Assembly (NCBI GenBank): GCA_934778215.1
Contig: CAKVOE010000002.1
Span: 383,069-447,068, forward strand
Direction: 5' to 3'
Origin: an uncultured Clostridia bacterium
Lineage (GTDB): Bacteria > Bacillota > Clostridia > Christensenellales > UBA1242
Length of the DNA: 64,000 bases
This document shows, one piece after another, positions 34,014-41,494 of the stretch. The notes beneath the pieces were generated by a model. The model ran no database searches. It was given only the letters and a program-made list of their open reading frames with translations, and had not been told where the DNA came from. The first letter of the stretch is position 1, and each line of letters begins with the position of its first letter. The position numbers and the translations under genes were made by a program.

Positions 34014-34281
34014 ATTTATTCTCCTATTAAATTTTGTAGTGGGGACAAAAATAGCAATTATAATTATATGCACTAGTTAACAGGTTTAAGTAAATTCAAG
34101 ACATCTACCCGTTTGGTCAAATTATATCACAAAAAAACTAAATAAAAAAATGATTTTTGATACAAAAGTGTGACACATAATATTGACATTAAAAAATCTT
34201 ATTATAGAATGCAATTAAAAGGTTGAAGAAAAGTAATATTCTTCAACCTTTTGCATTTTAAAGGGAGGTATGATATAATAA

Positions 34282-34596
34282 ATGGAGAAAGGTCCTAGTA
34301 CTTATGCTGAATACTGGACAAGTCCGTATAATGAAGCAAAGCATTTTAACGATCATGGCTGGCAAATGGGGTTTAAAGATGATTTCGTAGGATACTCTGA
34401 AGCTGCTAAAAACTTAGCAATAAGCGAAGCTGATGATGTGCTTGCATTTGTGAGAAAAGATGGTTGTGTGTGCAAGTTTAATACTACTTTAAGACATTTT
34501 ATAGTTATTAATAGAGGTGGTAAAATTATTTCGTTTTATAAGGCTGATATAAAGTATTTTTTAAGCGAATTTAATAAAAAGGGTTTATATAAATAA
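34282..34596 (+). CDS. Small stand-alone toxin-like protein (possibly BECR-fold RNase-like)
   Basis: AKHFNDHGWQMGF...YSEAAKNL...FVRKDG...KFN...FIVINRGGKIISFYK pattern recalls C-terminal nuclease domains of polymorphic toxins; assignment by eye only. Confidence 0.35.
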   Translation: MEKGPSTYAEYWTSPYNEAKHFNDHGWQMGFKDDFVGYSEAAKNLAISEADDVLAFVRKDGCVCKFNTTLRHFIVINRGGKIISFYKADIKYFLSEFNKKGLYK

Positions 34597-34612
34597 AAAG
34601 GAGAATTTTAAA

Positions 34613-34918
34613 ATGAGAAAATGCAGAATTTGTGGATTAGGTAATATTGAATATGACAATGATACTTGTAAAGTATGCGGATGGGAAGCAGATACAATAC
34701 AAGAGGAAAATCCAAATTATGTTGGTGGAGCTAATAATATGACTTACAATCAACAAATGAAGTTTTGGATAGAAAATAAGAATGAAATAACAAAAAGTAA
34801 AGATGATTTCTTTGTCGTCAAACTTTCATTAGAGTATTATAAGAAAAATTTTCAATGTATAAATGAAGAAATTTTAAGAAAAGAAGAAGCTGGACAAATA
34901 GTTCAAGAAATAAAATAG
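34613..34918 (+). CDS. Cysteine-rich CPCC-family protein
   Basis: CRICG...CKVCGWEADTIQEENPNYVGGANNMTYNQ matches the CPCC consensus (C.CC...C.vCgWeDD..Q...P...gGaN). Confidence 0.65.
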   Translation: MRKCRICGLGNIEYDNDTCKVCGWEADTIQEENPNYVGGANNMTYNQQMKFWIENKNEITKSKDDFFVVKLSLEYYKKNFQCINEEILRKEEAGQIVQEIK

Positions 34919-34939
34919 CTAAAGAAGGAAAAAAAGGAA

Positions 34940-35623
34940 GTGTTTATACAAAAAATAGATAAAAATAATAATTATAAATTGCATTACACATGCAAACTGT
35001 GTGGAGCAAAATATGCATATGAAACAGATAAGTGTTTTGTTTGTGGTTGGTTGTTTGATAAGGCTCAAAATGAAAATCCAAATTTAGACATAGGGAAAAA
35101 TATTTTAAGTCTTATTAAATATAAATGTGTATTCTACCTTAACGAAGATAAACTGCTAGGAATGGATCAAGAATATTTACAAGGAGTAGTCAGAGTTTTA
35201 TATGATAAAAATCCGAAATATTACGACAAATATGATATTAGAGAAATAGATAAAATGATTTTATTAAAACACAAGCCTTGCGAAAATCCACCTTATAAGT
35301 GTAAAATGTGTGGATTAGGAGATATTAAACATTGCTTCTATATTTGCGAATATTGTGGATGGGAAGATGATTCCTTACAAAATGATGAGCCAGATTATTT
35401 CGGTGGAGCAAATGAAATGAGTTTAAATCAATACAGGGAGTTTTGGAATAATAATAAAGAAAAAATATTAAAATCTAAAAATAGATGTTTTAAAGCAATA
35501 GACTTGTCTAGAAAATATTACGAAAAACACTTTAAAGAAATCAACGAATCTATATTAGAACAAGAAGAAAGTGAAAGACAAAAATTATATGAATTGGCAA
35601 AAGAATATAAAAAAGAAAACTAA
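34940..35623 (+). CDS. Protein with two CPCC-like zinc-ribbon modules
   Basis: CKLCG...CFVCGWLFDKAQNENP and CKMCG...CEYCGWEDDSLQNDEPDYFGGANEMSLNQ; GTG start uncertain. Confidence 0.6.
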   Translation: MFIQKIDKNNNYKLHYTCKLCGAKYAYETDKCFVCGWLFDKAQNENPNLDIGKNILSLIKYKCVFYLNEDKLLGMDQEYLQGVVRVLYDKNPKYYDKYDIREIDKMILLKHKPCENPPYKCKMCGLGDIKHCFYICEYCGWEDDSLQNDEPDYFGGANEMSLNQYREFWNNNKEKILKSKNRCFKAIDLSRKYYEKHFKEINESILEQEESERQKLYELAKEYKKEN

Positions 35624-35688: not shown

Positions 35689-36420
35689 ATGAAAGAAAAA
35701 TATGAAGTTGATAACAATTTAATACAAGATAAAACTGTATATGAAAAAGAAAAGTTAGCGAAAAAACTTAAACTAGTTAGAAATGAATTTAAAACAGTTG
35801 GTAAATATGGTATGCCACTAATTAAAAAACAAGAAATTGATTTAGAGAAAATCGATTTATGGAATTACACAAAGACAAAATTAAACGATGTAGATAATAA
35901 AGATAAAACGATTCACTTTTTTACTTATGATTGGAATTTTGAAAGTGTATATGAAAAGCCAGAAGAAGCGCTTGAAAAGCTAGATCAATATTATGCTATT
36001 CTTACACCTGAATTTAGTACTTATAAAGATATGCCTCTTGCTAGACAAATAGATAGCGTGTTCAAAAACCGTTGGTGTGGAGCCTTTTGGCAAAAACAAG
36101 GCGTGTTAGTAATTCCAACAGTTTCTTGGGGGTCTATTCCTTGTATGGAGTTTTGCTTTGATGGGATTGAAAAAGGTTCAGTTGTAGCAGTTTCAACTTA
36201 TACAAGAGAAGATAATAAAGCGGGTTTTATGCTTGGATATAACAAAATGATTGAAATAATTGAGCCGTCAGCGGTAATTTGCTATGGAACACCTTTTGAA
36301 GAAATGAAGGGGAACATAAAAGCAATAGACCCTTTTAACAAGGAAGAACTCATTAAAAAAATGGGTTTTGCTGAATTCACTAGAAAATATTTAGCTGGTG
36401 AATTATATCCAGAGGTATAG
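35689..36420 (+). CDS. DUF4417-like protein
   Basis: IHFFTYDWNFESVYEKPE...LTPEFSTYKDMPLARQIDSVFKNRWCGAFWQKQGVLVIPTVSW resembles the DUF4417 core. Confidence 0.55.
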   Translation: MKEKYEVDNNLIQDKTVYEKEKLAKKLKLVRNEFKTVGKYGMPLIKKQEIDLEKIDLWNYTKTKLNDVDNKDKTIHFFTYDWNFESVYEKPEEALEKLDQYYAILTPEFSTYKDMPLARQIDSVFKNRWCGAFWQKQGVLVIPTVSWGSIPCMEFCFDGIEKGSVVAVSTYTREDNKAGFMLGYNKMIEIIEPSAVICYGTPFEEMKGNIKAIDPFNKEELIKKMGFAEFTRKYLAGELYPEV

Positions 36421-36430
36421 GAGGCATAAA

Positions 36431-37255
36431 GTGAAAAATTTTAAACTGACTATAGACTTGTTGCCGAAAGGCGCTTGGGGTAATGATTTTAGCAAAACCT
36501 TACCTAAAAAGGAGTGGGATATTGTTAGAAATTCTTGTTACGAAAGAGCCAACAATAAATGCGAAATTTGTGGGTTTGAAACAGATGAACTTGATGCTCA
36601 CGAAGTTTGGGATTTTGATATTGAAACAAAAACTCAAACACTTAAAGACATAATTGCTATTTGTAGCAAATGTCATGGGGTTAAACATATTAGAAATTCG
36701 CAAAGGCTAGGCTTTGAAGAAAATGCAAAGAGTCACTTTATGAAAGTAAATAATTGTAGCGAAATGGAATTTGCCGCTCATTTAGTGAAAGCACAAATGG
36801 ATTTTGAAGAAAGAAATAACGTTTATAGGTGGAAAAGAAAGGCAGATTTAAGAAAATTTGGTCTTGAAAACGCCACAATTAAAGAGAAAAATATCCCTTA
36901 CATACAAAATCCTTATGAGCATGTTGATTGGAATGACTATGATTTCATAAAAAATAATCATAATATGCTATTTTATGTAGAAAAGAATGATAATTATTGT
37001 TTGGAACCTAAAATCCTAAGTATTGATATTAACAATTATCAAGGAACGATAAAAATAGTAAGCGATAATGCTAACAAAATTGAATGGTATTTGGATAATA
37101 ATAAGATAAAAACTAAGTATAACACAGTTGGGGAGTTTTCAACCATGGTGAATGTTCAAAATCTTGAAGGAAAGGAATTAGCCTTTGCTTTGTTTGGAGA
37201 AGGGGGTAAAACGCTTTCTAAAACATTTGAACTTTTGCCACAGGAGGTGCTATAA
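36431..37255 (+). CDS. HNH-like zinc-finger nuclease-domain protein
   Basis: CEICGFETDELDAHEVWDFD...ICSKCHGVKH; GTG 36431 lies 6 nt after AGGAGG; stop overlaps next start (TAATG). Confidence 0.5.
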   Translation: MKNFKLTIDLLPKGAWGNDFSKTLPKKEWDIVRNSCYERANNKCEICGFETDELDAHEVWDFDIETKTQTLKDIIAICSKCHGVKHIRNSQRLGFEENAKSHFMKVNNCSEMEFAAHLVKAQMDFEERNNVYRWKRKADLRKFGLENATIKEKNIPYIQNPYEHVDWNDYDFIKNNHNMLFYVEKNDNYCLEPKILSIDINNYQGTIKIVSDNANKIEWYLDNNKIKTKYNTVGEFSTMVNVQNLEGKELAFALFGEGGKTLSKTFELLPQEVL

Positions 37256-37530
37256 TGGGAATGTGTAAACCAAGTGGAGGAATAAGCAAATCTGTGGGTA
37301 GTCTTGGTAGTTTACCACGCAGAGCGACTCCCAACACAAGAATAGATCTATATAATGAAAATGGGAATTTAATTCAACAAAGATGGTATGGTCCAGATGG
37401 TTGGGTAATTCATAATAGAGATTATAATCATGGATTCCCTCGACCACATGACCATTATTGGGTTTGGGATAATAAAAATGGACCTCAAAGAGGTAAAGAA
37501 CACTCAAACCCTGATGATATTTTTTGTTAA
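37255..37530 (+). CDS. Small His/Trp-rich protein, family A (91 aa)
   Basis: NTRIDLYNENGNLIQQRWYGPDGWVIHNRDYNHGFPRPHDHYWVW; paralogue at 38762..39055. Confidence 0.6.
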   Translation: MGMCKPSGGISKSVGSLGSLPRRATPNTRIDLYNENGNLIQQRWYGPDGWVIHNRDYNHGFPRPHDHYWVWDNKNGPQRGKEHSNPDDIFC

Positions 37531-37541
37531 AAGGAGAAAAT

Positions 37542-37982
37542 ATGCACAAAATTAAAAAGTGGGCAAAATGTGATGTTTGTGGCAGAACTTTACTTGCCAG
37601 CAAAACTGGAAACGGAGAGTGTCAATATTGTGGTTGGTATAACAATAGACTCGGAGAAATAAACGAAAACGAAGTAATTTTCCCTAATTTAATATCATTA
37701 AATAAGGCAAAAAGATTATATCAAGAAGGAAAGTCTTTTAGACCAGACTTAAATGATTTTCTTGACGGATTATATTTTTATAGCGAAATGGAGTTTTGGT
37801 ATAAGGGATTAAATTGTTGCTTGTATCTAAGAAGCAACACGAATAGAAAAATCGAATTTGGTTGGAGTCCAGAAAATGTGTATTTCTTTTTAGATAAAGA
37901 AGATTTCATTCAAAATGCAAAAATTGGTGATGAATTTATAAAAGATATTTGGAATAAAGTTGAAAATCCAAAGTATTTATAG
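37542..37982 (+). CDS. Zinc-ribbon (CPCC-related) protein, family B
   Basis: CDVCG...GNGECQYCGW + C-terminal LNDFLDGLYFYSEMEFWY domain; paralogues at 38036 and 39068. Confidence 0.6.
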   Translation: MHKIKKWAKCDVCGRTLLASKTGNGECQYCGWYNNRLGEINENEVIFPNLISLNKAKRLYQEGKSFRPDLNDFLDGLYFYSEMEFWYKGLNCCLYLRSNTNRKIEFGWSPENVYFFLDKEDFIQNAKIGDEFIKDIWNKVENPKYL

Positions 37983-38035
37983 TTTTATTTAATATTCGCT
38001 ATTAATACAAATTAAACGGATAAAATAGGAGTAAA

Positions 38036-38485
38036 ATGAAAGAAAAAAATATACAAGCAAAATGTGATGTTTGTGAAAATGATATTTTAGTTGATGAATA
38101 TGGCAATGGAGATAATTGCCCTATTTGTGGTTGGCGACAATCAGAAGAGTCATTTTATCATAAAGATGTGGCTGGGATAAGAAATATTCCATGTCTTAAC
38201 AATGCGGTTAAACAATATAAAGAAGGCAAGTCTGCTATTTTAGCAAACTTTAGTGACTTTGTTATGGCGTATAAAAATTATGGCGAAGTAGAATTTACCT
38301 TAAATAATACAAGATACGGGGTGTATTTTGATGATAAATATAAAAAAGTTGCCATGGAAAATTTAAGAGATAATGTAACACAATATTTTGAAAGTATTGA
38401 AGATTTTGCAGATAATGCTAAGATTAACGGAGTCAATTTAAAATTTTTATGGCAATTCGTAACAGATACTGATTTTTTACAGTAA
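38036..38485 (+). CDS. Zinc-ribbon (CPCC-related) protein, family B paralogue
   Basis: CDVCE...GNGDNCPICGW + FSDFVMAYKNYGEVEF. Confidence 0.6.
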   Translation: MKEKNIQAKCDVCENDILVDEYGNGDNCPICGWRQSEESFYHKDVAGIRNIPCLNNAVKQYKEGKSAILANFSDFVMAYKNYGEVEFTLNNTRYGVYFDDKYKKVAMENLRDNVTQYFESIEDFADNAKINGVNLKFLWQFVTDTDFLQ

Positions 38486-38581
38486 AGGTTAAATATAGAC
38501 ATTTTAGTTACATTAACAATATTGAGTTTACAAAGTAAACTTTTATGTGTCTAAATGTACCTATGTGTCAGTTTTAGGTGC

Positions 38582-38715
38582 ATTTAGAAAGAATTAGACC
38601 GATAGTTGAGTTTATGACTATCGGTCTTTTTTATGGAACGAATTTTGACAGAAATTGCGTTGTTAAGTGACGACAAAGAATCTTCAAACTTTTGTATTAA
38701 AAGGGGATAAAATGA
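38582..38715 (+). repeat. Cassette-boundary repeat R1 (terminator hairpin + promoter-like leader)
   Basis: AGACCGATAGTTGAGTTTATGACTATCGGTCT hairpin and TTGACAGAAATTGCGTTGTTAAGTGACG...CTTCAAACTTTTGTATTAAAA; copy at 39733..39905. Confidence 0.8.
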
Positions 38716-38761
38716 AAAATGTTAACAAAAAAACGTACAAAACAAAGACGGAGGTGTTATA

Positions 38762-39055
38762 ATGGGAGCAGGAGGAGTTACAAATCGAACAGTAGAACGA
38801 GTAAATGGAAAACGAGGTGATTTGCCAACGAGTGGAGCGAAGCCAAATTCTAGATATGATTTGTATGTAAATGGTGAAAAAGTTCAAAGCAGGTGGTTTG
38901 ATTCAAAAGGTAAAGTTATAAGAAATAGAGATTTTAATCATCAGGACGCTCACAATAATCATGAATTTCCACATGACCATAATTGGAGTTGGGGTAAAGG
39001 ATGTCCTGAGAGAAATCCTGAGAATTTAGAACCCGACTATGATATGTATTATTAA
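38762..39055 (+). CDS. Small His/Trp-rich protein, family A paralogue (97 aa)
   Basis: NSRYDLYVNGEKVQSRWFDSKGKVIRNRDFNHQ...FPHDHNWSW. Preceded by a 16-codon leader ORF (38712..38762) overlapping its ATG. Confidence 0.6.
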   Translation: MGAGGVTNRTVERVNGKRGDLPTSGAKPNSRYDLYVNGEKVQSRWFDSKGKVIRNRDFNHQDAHNNHEFPHDHNWSWGKGCPERNPENLEPDYDMYY

Positions 39056-39067
39056 AAGGAGATAAAG

Positions 39068-39697
39068 ATGACAAAAAAATTAACTGATTATGAAATTGAT
39101 AAACAGATAAAAAAGCAATTATTAGTTAGAAATGAATTTCTATACCATGGCAATTCTATGGGGAAATATAATTTTCCTGTGATAAGAAAACAAAATAGAA
39201 ATGTTTCAGGATTAAATACTAAGGATTTTAAATTTTTTGATTATGATGACCCTTATATAAAAGACCAAATGACAAAATGCTCAATTTGTGGTTCAGTCGC
39301 ATTGCAAGACCAATATGGAAATGGAGAATGTAAACATTGTGGTTGGAAATTTAGTAAAGATGAGGAAATGTTTGAACAAAAATTGGGTATAAGTTATCCA
39401 ATGTTAGTTACTCCAACAACTGCAAGAGAACAATATAAAAAGGGGTTACCTTTTAAAGCAACATTTAAAGAATTTGTAAATGGCTTATATTTTTACAGCG
39501 AAATGCTTTTTGAGTATGATAAAACAACCTATGAAGTTTTTTTAAAAAAAGATTATACCATAGTGTTTTGCTCAAAAGAAATACAACAAGAATATAAAAC
39601 AAGACAAGATTTTGAAAACAATGCTAATATAAATGGAGTTTTGTTAAAAGAATTATGGAATAAAATTGATAAGCCGTCATTTATGTTTTGTGGATAA
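39068..39697 (+). CDS. Zinc-ribbon family B paralogue with N-terminal extension
   Basis: CSICG...GNGECKHCGW + FKEFVNGLYFYSEMLFEY. N-terminus KKQLLVRNEF..GKYNFPVIRKQ resembles the DUF4417 protein N-terminus KKLKLVRNEF..GKYGMPLIKKQ. Confidence 0.6.
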   Translation: MTKKLTDYEIDKQIKKQLLVRNEFLYHGNSMGKYNFPVIRKQNRNVSGLNTKDFKFFDYDDPYIKDQMTKCSICGSVALQDQYGNGECKHCGWKFSKDEEMFEQKLGISYPMLVTPTTAREQYKKGLPFKATFKEFVNGLYFYSEMLFEYDKTTYEVFLKKDYTIVFCSKEIQQEYKTRQDFENNANINGVLLKELWNKIDKPSFMFCG

Positions 39698-39732
39698 AAT
39701 GATTTGACAGCAACCCTCAGCAAACGTACCAG

Positions 39733-39905
39733 ATTTAGAAAGTTTACGAAAGAATTAGACCGATAGTTGAGTTTATGACTGTCGGTCTTTTTAGGCACGC
39801 AAGAAGATTTTTAATCTTCTATTGGAGCGGATTTAGACGGCAATTACGTTGTTAAATGACGATAAAAAATCTTCAAACTTTTGTATTAAAATAGGGGAAA
39901 TGATA
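39733..39905 (+). repeat. Cassette-boundary repeat R2 (copy of R1 with ~35-nt insertion)
   Basis: Same hairpin and leader as 38582..38715, followed only by a 16-codon ORF. Confidence 0.8.
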
Positions 39906-40116
39906 TAATATGGGCGTATTTGATGATTTAATTAAATTGATATTGGCAGATTCAAAATAATATGAAATATTTAGATCTAGTAGAATTAGTAAAAAACCAG
40001 TCTACAAAAAGTTGTGGGAATGCTAAAACACAAACCATTTAGAAAAGATCTTAAGATGTAAATTTATTTGTACAAAATTATTAAAAGTATGTTATACTCT
40101 AATTAGAGGATAAATT

Positions 40117-40953
40117 ATGAAGGTTGTAACTATTTGTGGAAGTATGAAATTTGCAAAGGAAATGCAAACTATTGCAGGCGTATTGGCAATAGAGAACGGC
40201 TGGTGTGTTTTACAATGCGTTTATGATTTAGATTTTGCAAATTTAACAAGCGAAGATTTGAATTTGTTAAAAAATGAACATTTAAAAAGAATAGAACTTT
40301 CAGATTCAATTTACGTTGTAAACATTGGTGGATATATTGGGAATTCGACCAAACTTGAAATTGAGTACGCAAAAAAATTAGGCAAAGAAGTTATCTATCA
40401 CGAATTCAACTTAGTAAGCGAACTAAATAATTATAAACCATTTAATGAAGACGAAAAAGAAAATGTAAAAAAGGTTTTGGACTTTTTGGCAAACAATACA
40501 AATTGTTACGATAGGTCTAATTTAAAAGGTCATGTAACCGCTGGTGGACTTATTGTTGACGGCAGTGGCAATGTATTATTAAATCATCACAAAAAGACAG
40601 GAATGTGGTTTCAGTTTGGTGGTCATAGTGATGGTGATACTAATTGCATCAATGTTGCTCGCAGAGAGATAAGCGAAGAGGCTGGGATTTTTGATTGTAA
40701 ACTTATTTCAAAAAATATTTTTGATGTCGATGTTCAACAAATTGCATATAGTGCGAAGAAAAATGAACCAGAGCATTTTCATTATGATATTAATTTTTTA
40801 TTTTTAGTTAGGGATAAAAACTTTGAAATCTCAAACGAGTCCACTGAGATTAAATGGGTCACTATTGAAGAAGCAAAAAGGCTTATAGATAAAGAAGATA
40901 AAGCCATGCAAAGAATGCTTGCAAAATATGAGTTGTATTGTAAACAAAATTAA
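40117..40953 (+). CDS. Fusion: nucleoside 2-deoxyribosyltransferase-like (DUF4406-like) N-domain + NUDIX hydrolase
   Basis: VVTICGSMKF...DSIYVVNIGGYIGNSTKLEIEYAKKLGK N-domain; Nudix box GGHSDGDTNCINVARREISEEAGI. Confidence 0.55.
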   Translation: MKVVTICGSMKFAKEMQTIAGVLAIENGWCVLQCVYDLDFANLTSEDLNLLKNEHLKRIELSDSIYVVNIGGYIGNSTKLEIEYAKKLGKEVIYHEFNLVSELNNYKPFNEDEKENVKKVLDFLANNTNCYDRSNLKGHVTAGGLIVDGSGNVLLNHHKKTGMWFQFGGHSDGDTNCINVARREISEEAGIFDCKLISKNIFDVDVQQIAYSAKKNEPEHFHYDINFLFLVRDKNFEISNESTEIKWVTIEEAKRLIDKEDKAMQRMLAKYELYCKQN

Positions 40954-40968: not shown

Positions 40969-41085
40969 ATGAAACATATAGTAATATTAAGACAGCCATT
41001 TTTTAATATGGTTTTAAATGGAGAGAAGACAATTGAAAGCAAATGTTTTTTTGCATTAAAAAATTTGTTAAAAATTCGCAAATAA
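40969..41085 (+). pseudogene. 5' fragment of an ASCH-domain gene
   Basis: MKHIVILRQPFFNMVLNGEKTIES then unrelated tail and stop after 38 codons. Confidence 0.45.
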
Positions 41086-41139
41086 AAAATCGCCAAAACC
41101 CTATGAAAATAAATGGTTTTAGCGACTTTTATCAGTGTA

Positions 41140-41208
41140 GCTGGTGACGGTAATCGGACCCGTCCCCCACCTTACCAAGGCAGTGCTTTACCTCTAAGCC
41201 ACATCAGC
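41140..41208 (-). tRNA. tRNA-Thr(GGU)-like gene, atypical (possible pseudogene)
   Basis: Manual fold gives acceptor, D and anticodon arms (loop TTGGTAA). But T-loop is TCCGATT, variable region 3 nt, one acceptor mismatch, no CCA, only 69 nt. Confidence 0.45.
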
Positions 41209-41264
41209 GTAGTTTTTAGCTCCATAAATTTGGAGCCTATGAAAATGTAATTTGGGGAACAAAA

Positions 41265-41494
41265 CGCCTTACCAAGGTGGTGCTCTACCACTGAGCCACA
41301 ATATCATAAACCCTTATTTAGGGCAAATTATTTAGTTGTATTTTGGTTAAAACCGAATCTTACCAAGCAAGTGCTCTACCTACTGAGCTACGTTAGCATA
41401 AGTTGTTGCTCCATAAAATTTGGAAATATTAAGTTGTAAATTTTACCCCCAAATACCTTACCAAGGTGGTGCTCTACCGCTGAGCCACACCAGC
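41265..41494 (-). repeat. Three tandem 5' halves of tRNA-Thr(GGU) with ~50-nt hairpin-containing spacers
   Basis: c41265..41305, c41355..41397, c41454..41494 each run from the tRNA 5' end to just past the anticodon loop. Confidence 0.8.

Follow-up and report, generated by a model that had tools for sequence, protein, structure and literature searches.

Repeats related to a tRNA-Thr-proximal element bound toxin-like cassettes in an uncultured Clostridia bacterium

Polymorphic toxin systems, as Zhang, Aravind et al. reportedly described in 2012, include orphan toxin/immunity modules that lie downstream of rhs, cdiA and mafB genes. The locus analysed here is like such modules in that a toxin-tip gene is followed by a small partner gene and in that the units stand in tandem and vary between species. 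It is unlike them in that it has neither a parent toxin gene nor shared upstream coding homology, in that the toxin-tip gene (A) brings a start codon of its own and encodes a conserved N-terminus, and in that DUF4417, with or without an HNH protein, joins the pair as a third component through fusion or adjacency. Another likeness is to SPP1-gp7/MuF-type 'minor capsid' proteins with C-terminal toxin domains. The structure model of A2 matches predicted phage 'minor capsid' and other phage proteins (TM 0.61-0.65), both A1 and A2 have a weak match to the C-terminus of the phrog_18811 'toxin' family, and DUF4417 and the HNH protein belong to phage-type families. Unlike those proteins, A has no capsid or delivery domain, and the locus has no phage structural genes.

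Two kinds of recombinase-bearing systems are also comparable. The rAID-1 arrays are recombinase-associated immunity-gene arrays of Bacteroidales, with an XerD-like recombinase, mostly orphan immunity genes and repetitive intergenic sequences (Ross et al. 2019, bioRxiv 10.1101/471110). Similarly, this locus is a co-directional array of small conflict genes in a gut bacterium, its intergenic sequences are repetitive, and in relatives a tyrosine recombinase stands at its head. In contrast to rAID-1, the toxin-like genes are intact, the A-type cassettes of relatives and the first cassette here (cassette 0) each have their own promoter, leader and RBS, the host is a member of the Clostridia, and the repeat is tied to a tRNA-Thr gene. 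A dedicated tyrosine recombinase heading the array, as in integrons and rAID-1, is present in four relatives and absent from the window, the 64,000-nt stretch of DNA that was analysed. Elements that target tRNA genes with lambda- or Tn916-type tyrosine integrases are similar in other respects. Near the tRNA the relatives carry repeated short words, and their cargo lies between the attachment region and an integrase whose N-terminal domain is of the arm-binding type; an excisionase-like HTH gene is present as well. As in tRNA-island accretion, different elements occupy the same tRNA in different strains. The differences are that the window has no recombinase genes with the array, that its units are not bounded by tRNA direct repeats, and that the putative words of the repeat lie astride a terminator within one arm.

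The features of the island are listed in Table 1. A first-pass annotation had noticed two repeats, R1 and R2, flanking a pair of small genes, and they are real paralogous repeats. Positions 38569-38631 and 39730-39792 are 86% identical, and positions 38634-38711 and 39823-39900 are 83-87% identical, compared with 65 +/- 5% for random window segments aligned by the same procedure. When the whole 1.23-Mb genome was searched with R1, R2 was found at E=1.1e-24 and a further copy, R3, at E=3.6e-6, with no others below E=0.04. All three copies are in this one locus; R is thus not a common terminator/promoter repeat spread through the genome, which was part of what would have spoken against the earlier interpretation. 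R follows three units in the window and two in a related locus (L077), and the proposal that it marks cassette boundaries holds.

Table 1. Features of the toxin-like cassette island and its surroundings (window coordinates unless a contig is named).
Feature	Position	Strand	Remarks
Promoter and leader of first cassette	34183..34281	+	TTGACA-16-TAGAAT; intact; promoter scan 11/12
Leader hairpin of first cassette	34217-34252	+	AAAAGGTTGAAGAA-N8-TTCTTCAACCTTTT, then GCATTTTAAA and RBS; fold z=-6.7
Cassette 0	34282..35623	+	104-aa toxin-like ORF, CPCC protein (101 aa), double-CPCC protein (227 aa)
Cassette 1	35689..38485	+	Pfam and PHROG matches
DUF4417 gene	35689-36420	+	cassette 1; 243-aa protein, PF14386 178.6 bits
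HNH-like protein gene	36431-37255	+	cassette 1
A1	37255-37530	+	cassette 1; 91 aa, stand-alone
B1	37542-37982	+	cassette 1
B2	38036-38485	+	cassette 1
R1	38541-38702	+	left-arm words, conserved block, terminator hairpin, right-arm words, leader 3' arm
R1 terminator hairpin	38596-38627	+	T-run behind; terminator scan: 13 pairs, TTTTTT run
16-codon mini-ORF MKNVNKKTYKTKTEVL	38712..38762	+	stop overlaps A2 ATG via TAATG
A2	38762..39055	+	97 aa, stand-alone, all-beta
B3	39068..39697	+	209 aa
R2	39701-39891	+	left-arm words, conserved block, two hairpins, right-arm words, leader 3' arm
R2 hairpin	39757-39788	+	
Second hairpin of R2	39802-39820	+	formed by 28-nt extra piece
Decayed cassette 3	39910..40042	+	two gene stubs
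16-codon stub MGVFDDLIKLILADSK	39910-39960	+	remnant of toxin-like gene
26-codon stub MKYLDLVELVKNQ..	39962-40042	+	remnant of 76-aa gene, intact in relatives
Deoxyribosyltransferase-like::NUDIX gene	40117-40953	+	further cargo; 278-aa homologue in G017
38-codon ASCH stub	40969-41085	+	further cargo; G017 counterpart 144 aa
One-word R vestige	41032-41054	+	last word ATTGAAAGCAAATGTTTTTTTGC of tRNA-proximal R, fused to truncated ASCH gene
tRNA-Thr terminator hairpin	41090-41125	-	tRNA-Thr and hairpin span 41090..41208
tRNA-Thr(GGU)	41139-41208	-	ARAGORN, Rfam; anchor adjoining R in relatives (alignment)
R3 (third copy)	G000:C2:447193-447248		~100 nt past window end

R is built from a conserved block and a terminator hairpin, with a pair of short direct words in front and another pair behind. 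The hairpin shared by R1 and R2, AGACCGATAG-N12-CTATCGGTCT followed by a T-run, has a perfect 10-bp stem and the same loop in both copies; of the two variable positions that had been assigned to it, there is a single A/G difference, which gives a U.G pair. It has the properties of an intrinsic terminator, namely a stem-loop and T-run downstream of a gene on the same strand (111 nt past B2 in R1 and 60 nt past B3 in R2); the z-scores of its fold are -4.6 (R1) and -3.5 (R2). The left-arm words of R1 read ..GTGTCTAAATGTACCTATGTGTCAG and its right-arm words TTGACAGAAATTGC .. GTGACGACAAAG, and the left-arm words of R2 read TTTGACAGCAACCCTCAGCAAACGTACCAG. The promoter-like leader attributed to both repeats is present in part: the 3' arm of the leader (TCTTCAAACTTTTGTATTAAAA at 38681-38702 in R1, and 39870-39891 in R2) and the RBS are left, and the promoter and the rest of the leader are gone. 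R2 does have an insertion, which measures 28 nt instead of about 35. Its first 12 nt (TAGGCACGCAAG) also occur in R3, and R1 and the copies in relatives have no insert. The last word of the tRNA-proximal vestige corresponds to ..AAAATTGACAGCAAATGTTTTTTGGGC.. at the same place in the alignment of relatives.

The words differ between lineages (TTGACAGCAA, TTTACTACAC, GTGTACCTAA, TTGACATCAA and GACACCTAC) while the anatomy of R is otherwise constant. The right-hand words are inverted in two genomes (G027 and G021), and hybrid word sets occur in G020 and in R1 of the window. Of the five occurrences of TTGACAGCAA in the genome, four lie within R2 and R3, and no cluster of it was found near recombinase genes anywhere in the genome. 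An integron attC site was considered for R, as the right-arm GTTAAGT/GTTAAAT fits GTTRRRY, and was rejected because there is no inverse core, imperfect long palindrome or IntI. A CRISPR/tracrRNA-like reading of GTTTTAGAG with the terminal hairpin was likewise set aside, there being no repeat array and no cas, tnpB or iscB, and the words being inverted in two lineages.

Homology of R to a tRNA-Thr-proximal element is observed across the family. Twelve of 36 genomes of family relatives, from 10 genera, carry R, one copy each. In all ten R-bearing relatives inspected, R lies ~150-200 nt from tRNA-Thr with a variable gene on its other side. In these small-genome gut Clostridia the element's order toward the anchor is cargo genes, R, tRNA terminator, tRNA-Thr. 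R retains 82-88% identity across genera, while the adjacent A genes are saturated at synonymous sites (dS 1.2-1.5). In four relatives (G028, G005, G007 and G021), an HTH_17-like protein of 87-88 aa is followed by a tyrosine integrase of 408-453 aa, one to three cargo genes, R and tRNA-Thr. The two genomes that share a word type also have the closest integrases (69% identity versus 45-58%), a correlation based on four genomes. In a fifth relative (G017), an integrase remnant is followed by the same 278-aa NUDIX278 gene, a 144-aa ASCH gene, R and tRNA-Thr, and this cargo is 87% identical in nucleotides to that of the window over 1 kb. On the island side, the nearest few kb contain no integrase in about half of the R-bearing relatives; two of these cases are at contig edges. 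An integrase and cargo thus stand beside the tRNA in four relatives and as a remnant in G017, and not in the window's genome, where no homologues of the large integrase or the HTH protein were found. No recombinase adjoins the window's array; the nearest PF00589 match, at window ~18.2 kb, is 16 kb upstream and not related to the relatives' large integrase.

How did the island arise? Probably, though with considerable room for doubt, it is a stack of decayed cargo slots of tRNA-Thr elements, in which R is the integrase-proximal att arm together with the cargo terminator and A2-B3 is one cargo unit. It is the order of HTH gene, tyrosine integrase, cargo, R and tRNA-Thr in four relatives that leads to this reading of R and of the island as accreted slots. 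R would end the cargo transcript with its intrinsic terminator, and the four short direct words that flank its hairpin in pairs would be putative arm-type sites to which the element's integrase or excisionase may bind. The island (34.2-41.1 kb) would comprise at least three accreted cargo slots, each closed by an R (R1, R2 and the vestige), with A2 and B3 between R1 and R2 forming one unit. The integrase and excisionase genes would have been lost from the island by deletion. A deletion would have brought the 3' arm of the following cassette's leader hairpin straight up against the right arm of R, and the R copies would later have exchanged sequence by gene conversion or unequal recombination. 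If so, what remains at the locus is the cargo and end modules of mobile elements. In other words, the presence of several side-by-side toxin-like cassettes in a 1.2-Mb gut bacterium would be explained as mobile-element cargo aimed at one tRNA gene.

This explanation has its costs. Accretion predicts an orphan tRNA-Thr 3' half, and none was found between the cassettes or elsewhere in the genome, where the 3' half is single and the extra copies are 5' halves only, on the far side of the tRNA. Direct repeats of part of the tRNA do not occupy both ends of the island, and none was seen by eye at its left edge. Because the large integrase, the HTH protein and the orphan 3' half are all missing from the genome, accretion requires several unobserved deletions. 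The identical junction of right arm and leader in R1 and R2 needs an extra duplication or conversion step, and four words in one arm astride a terminator are unusual.

Some of that exchange between R copies can be traced. R1, R2 and R3 are mosaics of each other. The left arms of R1 and R2 are 54% identical, whereas R2 shares 80-82% identity there with R3 and with the copy in G028; for the loop and right arm, R1 is closest to R2 and R2 to R1. R1 and R2 thus share the derived junction and the loop and not the left arm or the 28-nt insert, so the copies must since have exchanged sequence. Furthermore, where R1 of strain L037 and R2 of L035 differ from the window copies, the alternative state is that of the other repeat. 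Mosaic similarity and these shared polymorphisms point to gene conversion among the R copies. Of the earlier idea that cassettes recombine at R, the exchange of sequence between copies is borne out, and a site for swapping cassettes is not; an att-arm and terminator end fits better. Cassette content varies between species of the genus and is the same in every long conspecific contig that reaches the neighbouring genes (12-17 contigs).

The cargo itself centres on three linked components. Of 72 loci, nearly all have B behind A, and DUF4417 is either fused to the pair or next to it. A cultured relative, Anaerocaecibacter muris, also has an A-type cassette. A profile of A gave 554 matches, C-termini of RHS proteins among them, and stand-alone homologues of ~97 aa form at least 160 clusters. 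A2 is a stand-alone version of the domain that forms the C-terminal tip of RHS toxins, and A and B are a putative toxin/immunity pair. N29, Q42, R44, W45, R56, D57, H60 and P70-H-D-H73 of A2 are invariant or nearly so, and its dN/dS of 0.05-0.15 shows purifying selection. R and the promoter-leader hairpin are conserved, whereas A2 and its homologues have reached saturation at synonymous sites; as two conserved non-coding modules, they are concrete targets for binding and transcription work. The A2 model has a pLDDT of 84.7. Foldseek against PDB gave nothing below E=0.09 for this model or for that of a 398-aa fusion protein, and at the sequence level neither the A profile nor DUF4417 found a match in PDB. 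If A is toxic inside the producer cell, toxin tips would be reused here with no means of delivery, and one example of such reuse would be in addiction or abortive-infection modules of mobile elements.

B3, the conserved partner of A2, descends from a DUF4417-CPCC-B fusion gene by a 567-nt deletion between two short similar stretches. Its nt 1-137 correspond to nt 1-137 of the fusion gene of G006 and its nt 120-630 to nt 687-1197. In other words, 189 codons were lost in frame, with an 18-nt overlap and a junction at ~39187-39204. What is left is the first ~42 residues of the DUF4417 domain, an in-frame linker, the CPCC zinc ribbon and the B C-terminal domain, and no PF14386 (DUF4417) match is obtained at E<=0.1. 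The N-terminus of B3 had been taken for a copy of that of the DUF4417 protein, made by domain shuffling. The resemblance exists and is modest (39% over 31 aa, E=3e-4; 80% over 30 nt); since B3 is the fusion minus 189 codons in frame, its N-terminus was not shuffled. In about 40 loci A is followed by a fusion protein of 398-447 aa, and L065 has an independent, different in-frame deletion of the fusion gene. The linkage of A, CPCC protein and DUF4417 is seen as fusion, as permuted gene order and as recurrent in-frame loss of the DUF4417 core. This gives a clearer picture of an uncharacterised three-part set, widespread in uncultured gut Clostridia, of an A toxin-tip domain, a CPCC zinc-ribbon protein and DUF4417.

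Both CPCC proteins of cassette 0 match PF14206, and no family was found for its 104-aa toxin-like ORF. The gene order of cassette 1 recurs in G019 and L066. After R2, the 16-codon ORF noted earlier is present and is not alone, as the 26-codon remnant follows it. In L077, a leader, a frameshifted gene (MGVLDDLIK..), the intact 76-aa gene and R follow one another, and in G006 the 76-aa gene precedes R. The 76-aa protein was suspected to be DUF4926, which Pfam did not bear out, and a related 161-aa cargo protein gave a weak match only. PADLOC matched none of the ten island proteins and, like Pfam and PDB, offers no functional anchor for A or B.

A simpler history can be considered, in which R is a mere terminator-plus-promoter spacer, an A-B unit with its spacer was doubled by unequal crossing-over, the genes diverged, and the spacers were kept alike by gene conversion or selection for termination. 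The close loops and right arms of R1 and R2, the quality of the hairpin as a terminator and the tandem A-B units of L098 and L107 are what such a local duplication would leave. However, A1 and A2 are only 43% identical and the B paralogues about 30-35%, and closer orthologues exist in other species (cassette 1 in L066 and G019; A2 in L063, at 87%), which indicates that the cassettes are old lineages and not a local duplicate. In L066 both cassettes are present and R does not separate them, R1 and R2 diverge in their left arms, and R is orthologous to the tRNA-Thr-proximal element with its lineage-specific words and integrase linkage; local duplication is thus unlikely. Dedicated capture, as in integrons or rAID-1, would make R, perhaps with the leader, a site where a tyrosine recombinase inserts, excises or reorders cassettes. 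R does stand at cassette ends in several species, after the fusion gene (directly after the A/fusion pair in L064, L069 and L071) and after the 76-aa gene, with two copies of identical loop flanking cassette 3 in L077. The lineage-specific words and hybrid arms, the tyrosine integrase heading the slot in four relatives, an unrelated integrase directly upstream of A in L029-L032, and the repetitive intergenic sequences and recombinase of rAID-1 (10.1101/471110) agree with it too. Yet the window's array has no adjoining recombinase, the multi-gene slots of G007 and G006 have no internal R, the A-type cassettes of relatives and cassette 0 bring their own promoters, the perfect stem is unlike the imperfect palindrome of attC, and no variant arrangement was found among the 12-17 conspecific contigs. 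Capture of this kind is quite improbable. The same small chance is given to its fuller version, a cassette-exchange system in which R and the shared promoter-leader are the two ends and a Tn916-like integrase with its HTH partner reads the words and loads or reshuffles toxin-tip/partner cassettes between integrase and tRNA-Thr. If true, this would give the Firmicutes a counterpart of integrons or rAID-1, with stand-alone toxin modules as the cassettes.

That A2-B3 serves as a silent reserve module for recombination into the gene of a large delivery toxin is very improbable. The A domain is an RHS C-terminal tip elsewhere, and the B gene comes directly behind A. The cassettes had been likened to the orphan arrays of polymorphic toxins. 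That comparison is not supported: the A-type cassettes of relatives and the first cassette have promoters, leaders and RBSs of their own. A has its own RBS, ATG and conserved N-terminus (MG..), the at least 160 stand-alone clusters are under purifying selection, and R is non-coding, with no shared pre-toxin coding stretch. The 97%-complete genome contains no RHS repeat, no WXG100 protein and no other copy of A, so the earlier remark that a large delivery protein is lacking is supported, and A1 and A2 are not the C-termini of large delivered proteins in this genome. Least credible of all is that R is a structured regulatory RNA (a riboswitch, sRNA or guide-RNA-like scaffold) instead of a DNA site. 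Across genera, R keeps a block GTTTTAGAGAGTTT.. with a hairpin and U-run behind it, and G.U pairs in the stem of some relatives fit an RNA-level hairpin. Against this, no Rfam family was matched (in a scan of 33-43 kb at E<=1, tRNAs were the sole matches at or near R), the sequence behind the hairpin is no more stably folded than its shuffles (z=+0.3 in R1 and +0.4 in R2), there is no adjacent cas, tnpB or iscB, and the inversion of the right-hand words in two lineages fits protein-DNA binding and not a single RNA fold.

Two observations concern the leaders. The 16-codon ORF described as overlapping the ATG of the A-family paralogue is there, and it was considered as a conserved regulator. Among 61 A genes from other loci, 8 are preceded by an ORF of 15-17 codons, as is A in G003, and 24 have no in-frame ATG. 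With only about one in six loci having such an ORF, this role was rejected. The promoter-leader module of cassette 0 is found upstream of cassettes in at least 13 other loci. Considered as an RNA element, its helix is 90% paired without covariation, the sequence being too conserved to show any, and an A.C mismatch in the hairpin is kept in 11 of 16 sequences.

The window spans G000:C2:383069-447068 in a genome that comprises 1.23 Mb at ~30% G+C. Relatives of this genome belong to uncultured Clostridia of the gut, among them Christensenella-like MAGs, Candidatus Onthoplasma, Candidatus Borkfalkia, and Anaerocaecibacter. The pair of non-coding repeats (R1 and R2) reported by the first-pass annotation was borne out in position by alignment. 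The two copies were 86% identical between 38569-38631 and 39730-39792 and 83-87% identical between 38634-38711 and 39823-39900, against a baseline of 65 +/- 5% for random segments aligned by the same procedure. R is specific to this locus and not a genome-wide repeat, because, apart from R2 (E=1.1e-24), a search of the whole genome with R1 yielded a single further copy, R3 (E=3.6e-6), located ~100 nt past the window end. The hairpin of R (AGACCGATAG-N12-CTATCGGTCT followed by a T-run) was called a terminator by scan and fold, and differs by a single base between R1 and R2. R2 has an additional 28-nt hairpin whose initial 12 nt are common to R3 and which is absent from R1 and from all relatives. 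A degenerate, frameshifted 3' fragment of a gene of the B family of CPCC zinc ribbons (..KVDGKLVKDIWNEVENANWLQ, stop) was found 5' of R3 (window 64004-64094 equivalent, L003:1380-1470). On its right side R3 keeps a remnant of a tRNA terminator, the tRNA is absent, and contig C2 ends 2 kb further.

When R2 was searched against 60 relatives, 12 of the 36 same-family genomes, representing 10 genera, gave a single copy each. In the 10 copies inspected, R and the 3' end of the minus-strand tRNA-Thr were ~150-200 nt apart, with the tRNA's own terminator in between and a variable gene on the other side of R. Anchoring on the hairpin revealed a plan common to all copies, namely a word of 9-11 nt in two direct copies, a conserved block (..GTTTTAG..AGTTT..GAAAGAATT), then the hairpin with its T-run, and the word in two further copies. 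What does R do? The word types depend on the lineage (TTGACAGCAA, TTTACTACAC, GTGTACCTAA, TTGACATCAA, GACACCTAC), the right-hand words are inverted in genomes G027 and G021, and left and right types are unlike in G020 and window R1. The lineage change, inversion, and hybrids fit putative protein-binding DNA sites, and are a misfit with a single RNA fold. R identity between genera was 82-88% while synonymous sites of the neighboring A genes (A being a toxin-tip-like domain family) were saturated; therefore R is either constrained or moving horizontally by itself. A word pair (TGACAGCAATTGACAGCAAATGT) with a nearby inverted TTGCTGTC was also seen just past a truncated tRNA-Thr at L069:7880-7960 and L066:5540-5620, where other inserted DNA, encoding R-M and BRO-like genes, begins. 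Both element ends may thus be marked by these words.

Four genomes (G028, G005, G007, and G021) share the order HTH_17-like protein (87-88 aa), tyrosine integrase (408-453 aa, with Phage_integrase, SAM-like, and central domains), one to three cargo genes, R, terminator, and tRNA-Thr. The integrase N-terminus looks like what we take to be an arm-binding domain, as in Tn916-type integrases. Among the four, integrases were closest in the two genomes with a shared word type (69% vs 45-58%). G017 has a C-terminal integrase remnant; after it come an orthologue of the 278-aa NUDIX fusion gene seen in the window, an ASCH gene of 144 aa, R, and lastly tRNA-Thr. In the window, the vestigial R is followed by the tRNA terminator and then tRNA-Thr. 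The window's genome contains no homologue of the relatives' integrase or HTH protein and no orphan tRNA 3' half.

A second conserved non-coding module, the leader, consists of a promoter, a hairpin (AAAAGGTTGAAGAA-N8-TTCT(T/C)CAACCTTTT), and GCATTTT. It is present in at least 13 other loci and precedes unrelated first genes, including the window's 104-aa ORF, A2-type genes, the DUF4417 gene of G019, and the cassette-3 gene of L077 (a compared locus) and G006. Its fold is strong (z=-6.7), and its conservation is too high to reveal covariation. The leader could be a 5' stabilizer, an attenuator, or an operator. R1 and R2 keep the 3' arm of the leader alone, their regions past the terminator hairpin fold no better than shuffles, and a promoter scan found no sigma-70-like site of at least 9/12 between the R1 terminator and A2.

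Features of the island and its surroundings (window positions)
Feature	Position	Description
Island	34.2-41.1 kb	can be read as three stretches of cargo, all R-terminated
Segment 1		cassette 0 (104-aa ORF, CPCC proteins) and cassette 1 (DUF4417, HNH-like, A1, B1, B2); ends in R1
Segment 2		A2-B3; ends in R2
Segment 3		cassette-3 stubs, NUDIX and ASCH genes; ends in vestigial R, then tRNA-Thr
R1	38541-38702	
A2	38762-39055	43% identity to A1
R2	39701-39891	
Vestigial R	41032-41054	last word only, fused to ASCH gene shortened to 38 codons
tRNA-Thr with tRNA 5'-half copies	41139-41494 and beyond	three copies beyond tRNA-Thr

The simplest origin of the island would be that tRNA-Thr elements, or their cargo ends, arrived one after another, and that their recombinase parts were deleted afterwards. 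After its first R, L077 retains a terminator-like remnant, a promoter, and the full leader; in the window, the R right arm adjoins the leader 3' arm directly. R1 and R2 have this derived junction and the hairpin loop in common, with a left-arm identity of just 54%; what R2 and R3 have in common is the left-arm type (80% identity) and the first 12 nt of the insert. Strain L037 has the canonical TCAACCTTTTGCATT in R1 where window R1 and R2 both have TCAAACTTTTGTATT, and at one position R2 of L035 agrees with R1 whereas window R2 does not. These mosaics and shared polymorphisms indicate that sequence has passed between R copies through gene conversion or unequal exchange.

The first-pass annotation proposed that cassettes are duplicated or exchanged by recombination at R, that the N-terminus of B3 was copied from the window's DUF4417 protein, and that the locus recalls the orphan toxin/immunity arrays found downstream of polymorphic toxin genes, here lacking a large delivery protein. 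Recombination among R copies was upheld, as was their place at the ends of modules, but neither domain shuffling nor an orphan array belonging to a larger toxin gene was. B3 matches the window's DUF4417 protein by just 39% over 31 aa. In G006 and G003 (same genus), in G013, and in ~40 of the 72 loci of other species, the gene after A is a fusion of 393-447 aa, in the order DUF4417 domain, linker, CPCC zinc ribbon, and B C-terminal domain. Aligned to the fusion gene of G006, B3 covers nt 1-137 and nt 687-1197, the two stretches overlapping by 18 nt, and lacks 567 nt (189 codons) in frame, which makes it a product of deletion and not of shuffling. In L065, from another species, the same DUF4417 core was lost by a different in-frame deletion (228 aa). 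The stand-alone DUF4417 gene (window 35689-36420 equivalent) is split into 57 and 129 aa in conspecific L034, L040, and L041 (Hadza-type contigs). The split gene and the two independent deletions suggest repeated loss of this domain.

The orphan-array reading is unsupported, as neither RHS repeats nor WXG100 nor another copy of A occur in this genome. Cassette order was the same in all long conspecific contigs that carried identical A2, B2, or NUDIX proteins and reached neighboring genes, and no sign of ongoing within-species cassette exchange was seen; short Logan contigs end inside R, as an assembly repeat predicts. The locus is best read as a new form of two known things, the probable accretion of an island at a tRNA and toxin-tip/partner cassettes in a detached state. 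The two non-coding modules and the uncharacterized three-protein set deserve bench study.

The 16-codon ORF overlapping the A2 ATG was confirmed, and is not treated as a conserved element: ORFs of 15-17 codons occur 5' of A in 8 of 61 genes surveyed in other loci and in G003, and 24 of the surveyed genes have no in-frame ATG there. The 16-codon ORF said to be all that remains after R2 (MGVFDDLIK..) is present but accompanied by a 26-codon stub (MKYLDLVELVKNQ..), both being remains of a third cassette. L077 has, in this order, the same leader, a frameshifted MGVLDDLIK.. gene, an intact 76-aa gene, and another R; the 76-aa gene stands before R in G006.

What are A and B? No model for A exists in Pfam, NCBIfam, or PADLOC. 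A profile of A1 and A2 matched 554 proteins; many were stand-alone (~90-100 aa), many carried A at the extreme C-terminus behind an RHS core or RHS repeats, and two carried it ahead of a Tox-WTIP domain. The confidently predicted A2 structure is all-beta (pLDDT 84.7); it has no PDB neighbor and resembles predicted phage 'minor capsid' and other phage proteins (TM 0.61-0.65). A2-type genes are under purifying selection (dN/dS 0.05-0.15, dS saturated). B nearly always follows A (72 loci), and DUF4417 is fused to B, just downstream (A, B, sometimes a second B, DUF4417, sometimes HNH), or upstream (DUF4417, HNH, A, B, the order of window cassette 1, G019, and L066). Fusion and permuted order argue that the three would act together. 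From position only, we infer a putative toxin role for A-type and immunity role for B-type proteins.

The far side of the same tRNA-Thr is a second integration hot spot, where conspecific L033, L034, and L035 differ by three distinct mobile elements (541-aa serine recombinase with HUH Rep; 911-aa helicase with integrase; 246-aa protein with 512-aa serine recombinase). In L029-L032, with an 86%-identical A2 homologue, the A/fusion pair is flanked by tRNA-Arg(CCU) on one side and by a different tyrosine integrase, of 339 aa, on the other; the cassette therefore also occupies the integrase-proximal slot in a second family of elements. Cargo slots of G007 (L142) and G006 (L024 5463-5957, 7483-7857) hold a 204-aa protein with ..HCVKCVA.., then small MK(F/K)LD.. 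proteins, one with a weak DUF4926 match; these sets are further putative pairs of the toxin/immunity-like kind, with no relation to A and B. Stand-alone A proteins have a conserved N-terminus (MGMCKPSGG or MGAGGVPNR; alignments A4 and A6) missing from RHS-fused copies, and the MGMC type often has a C-terminal Cys (..YC, ..FC). A weak match to B1 outside the window (G000:C1:587064-587264) falls within a 12,490-aa open frame; a giant protein is thus encoded in this 1.2-Mb genome.
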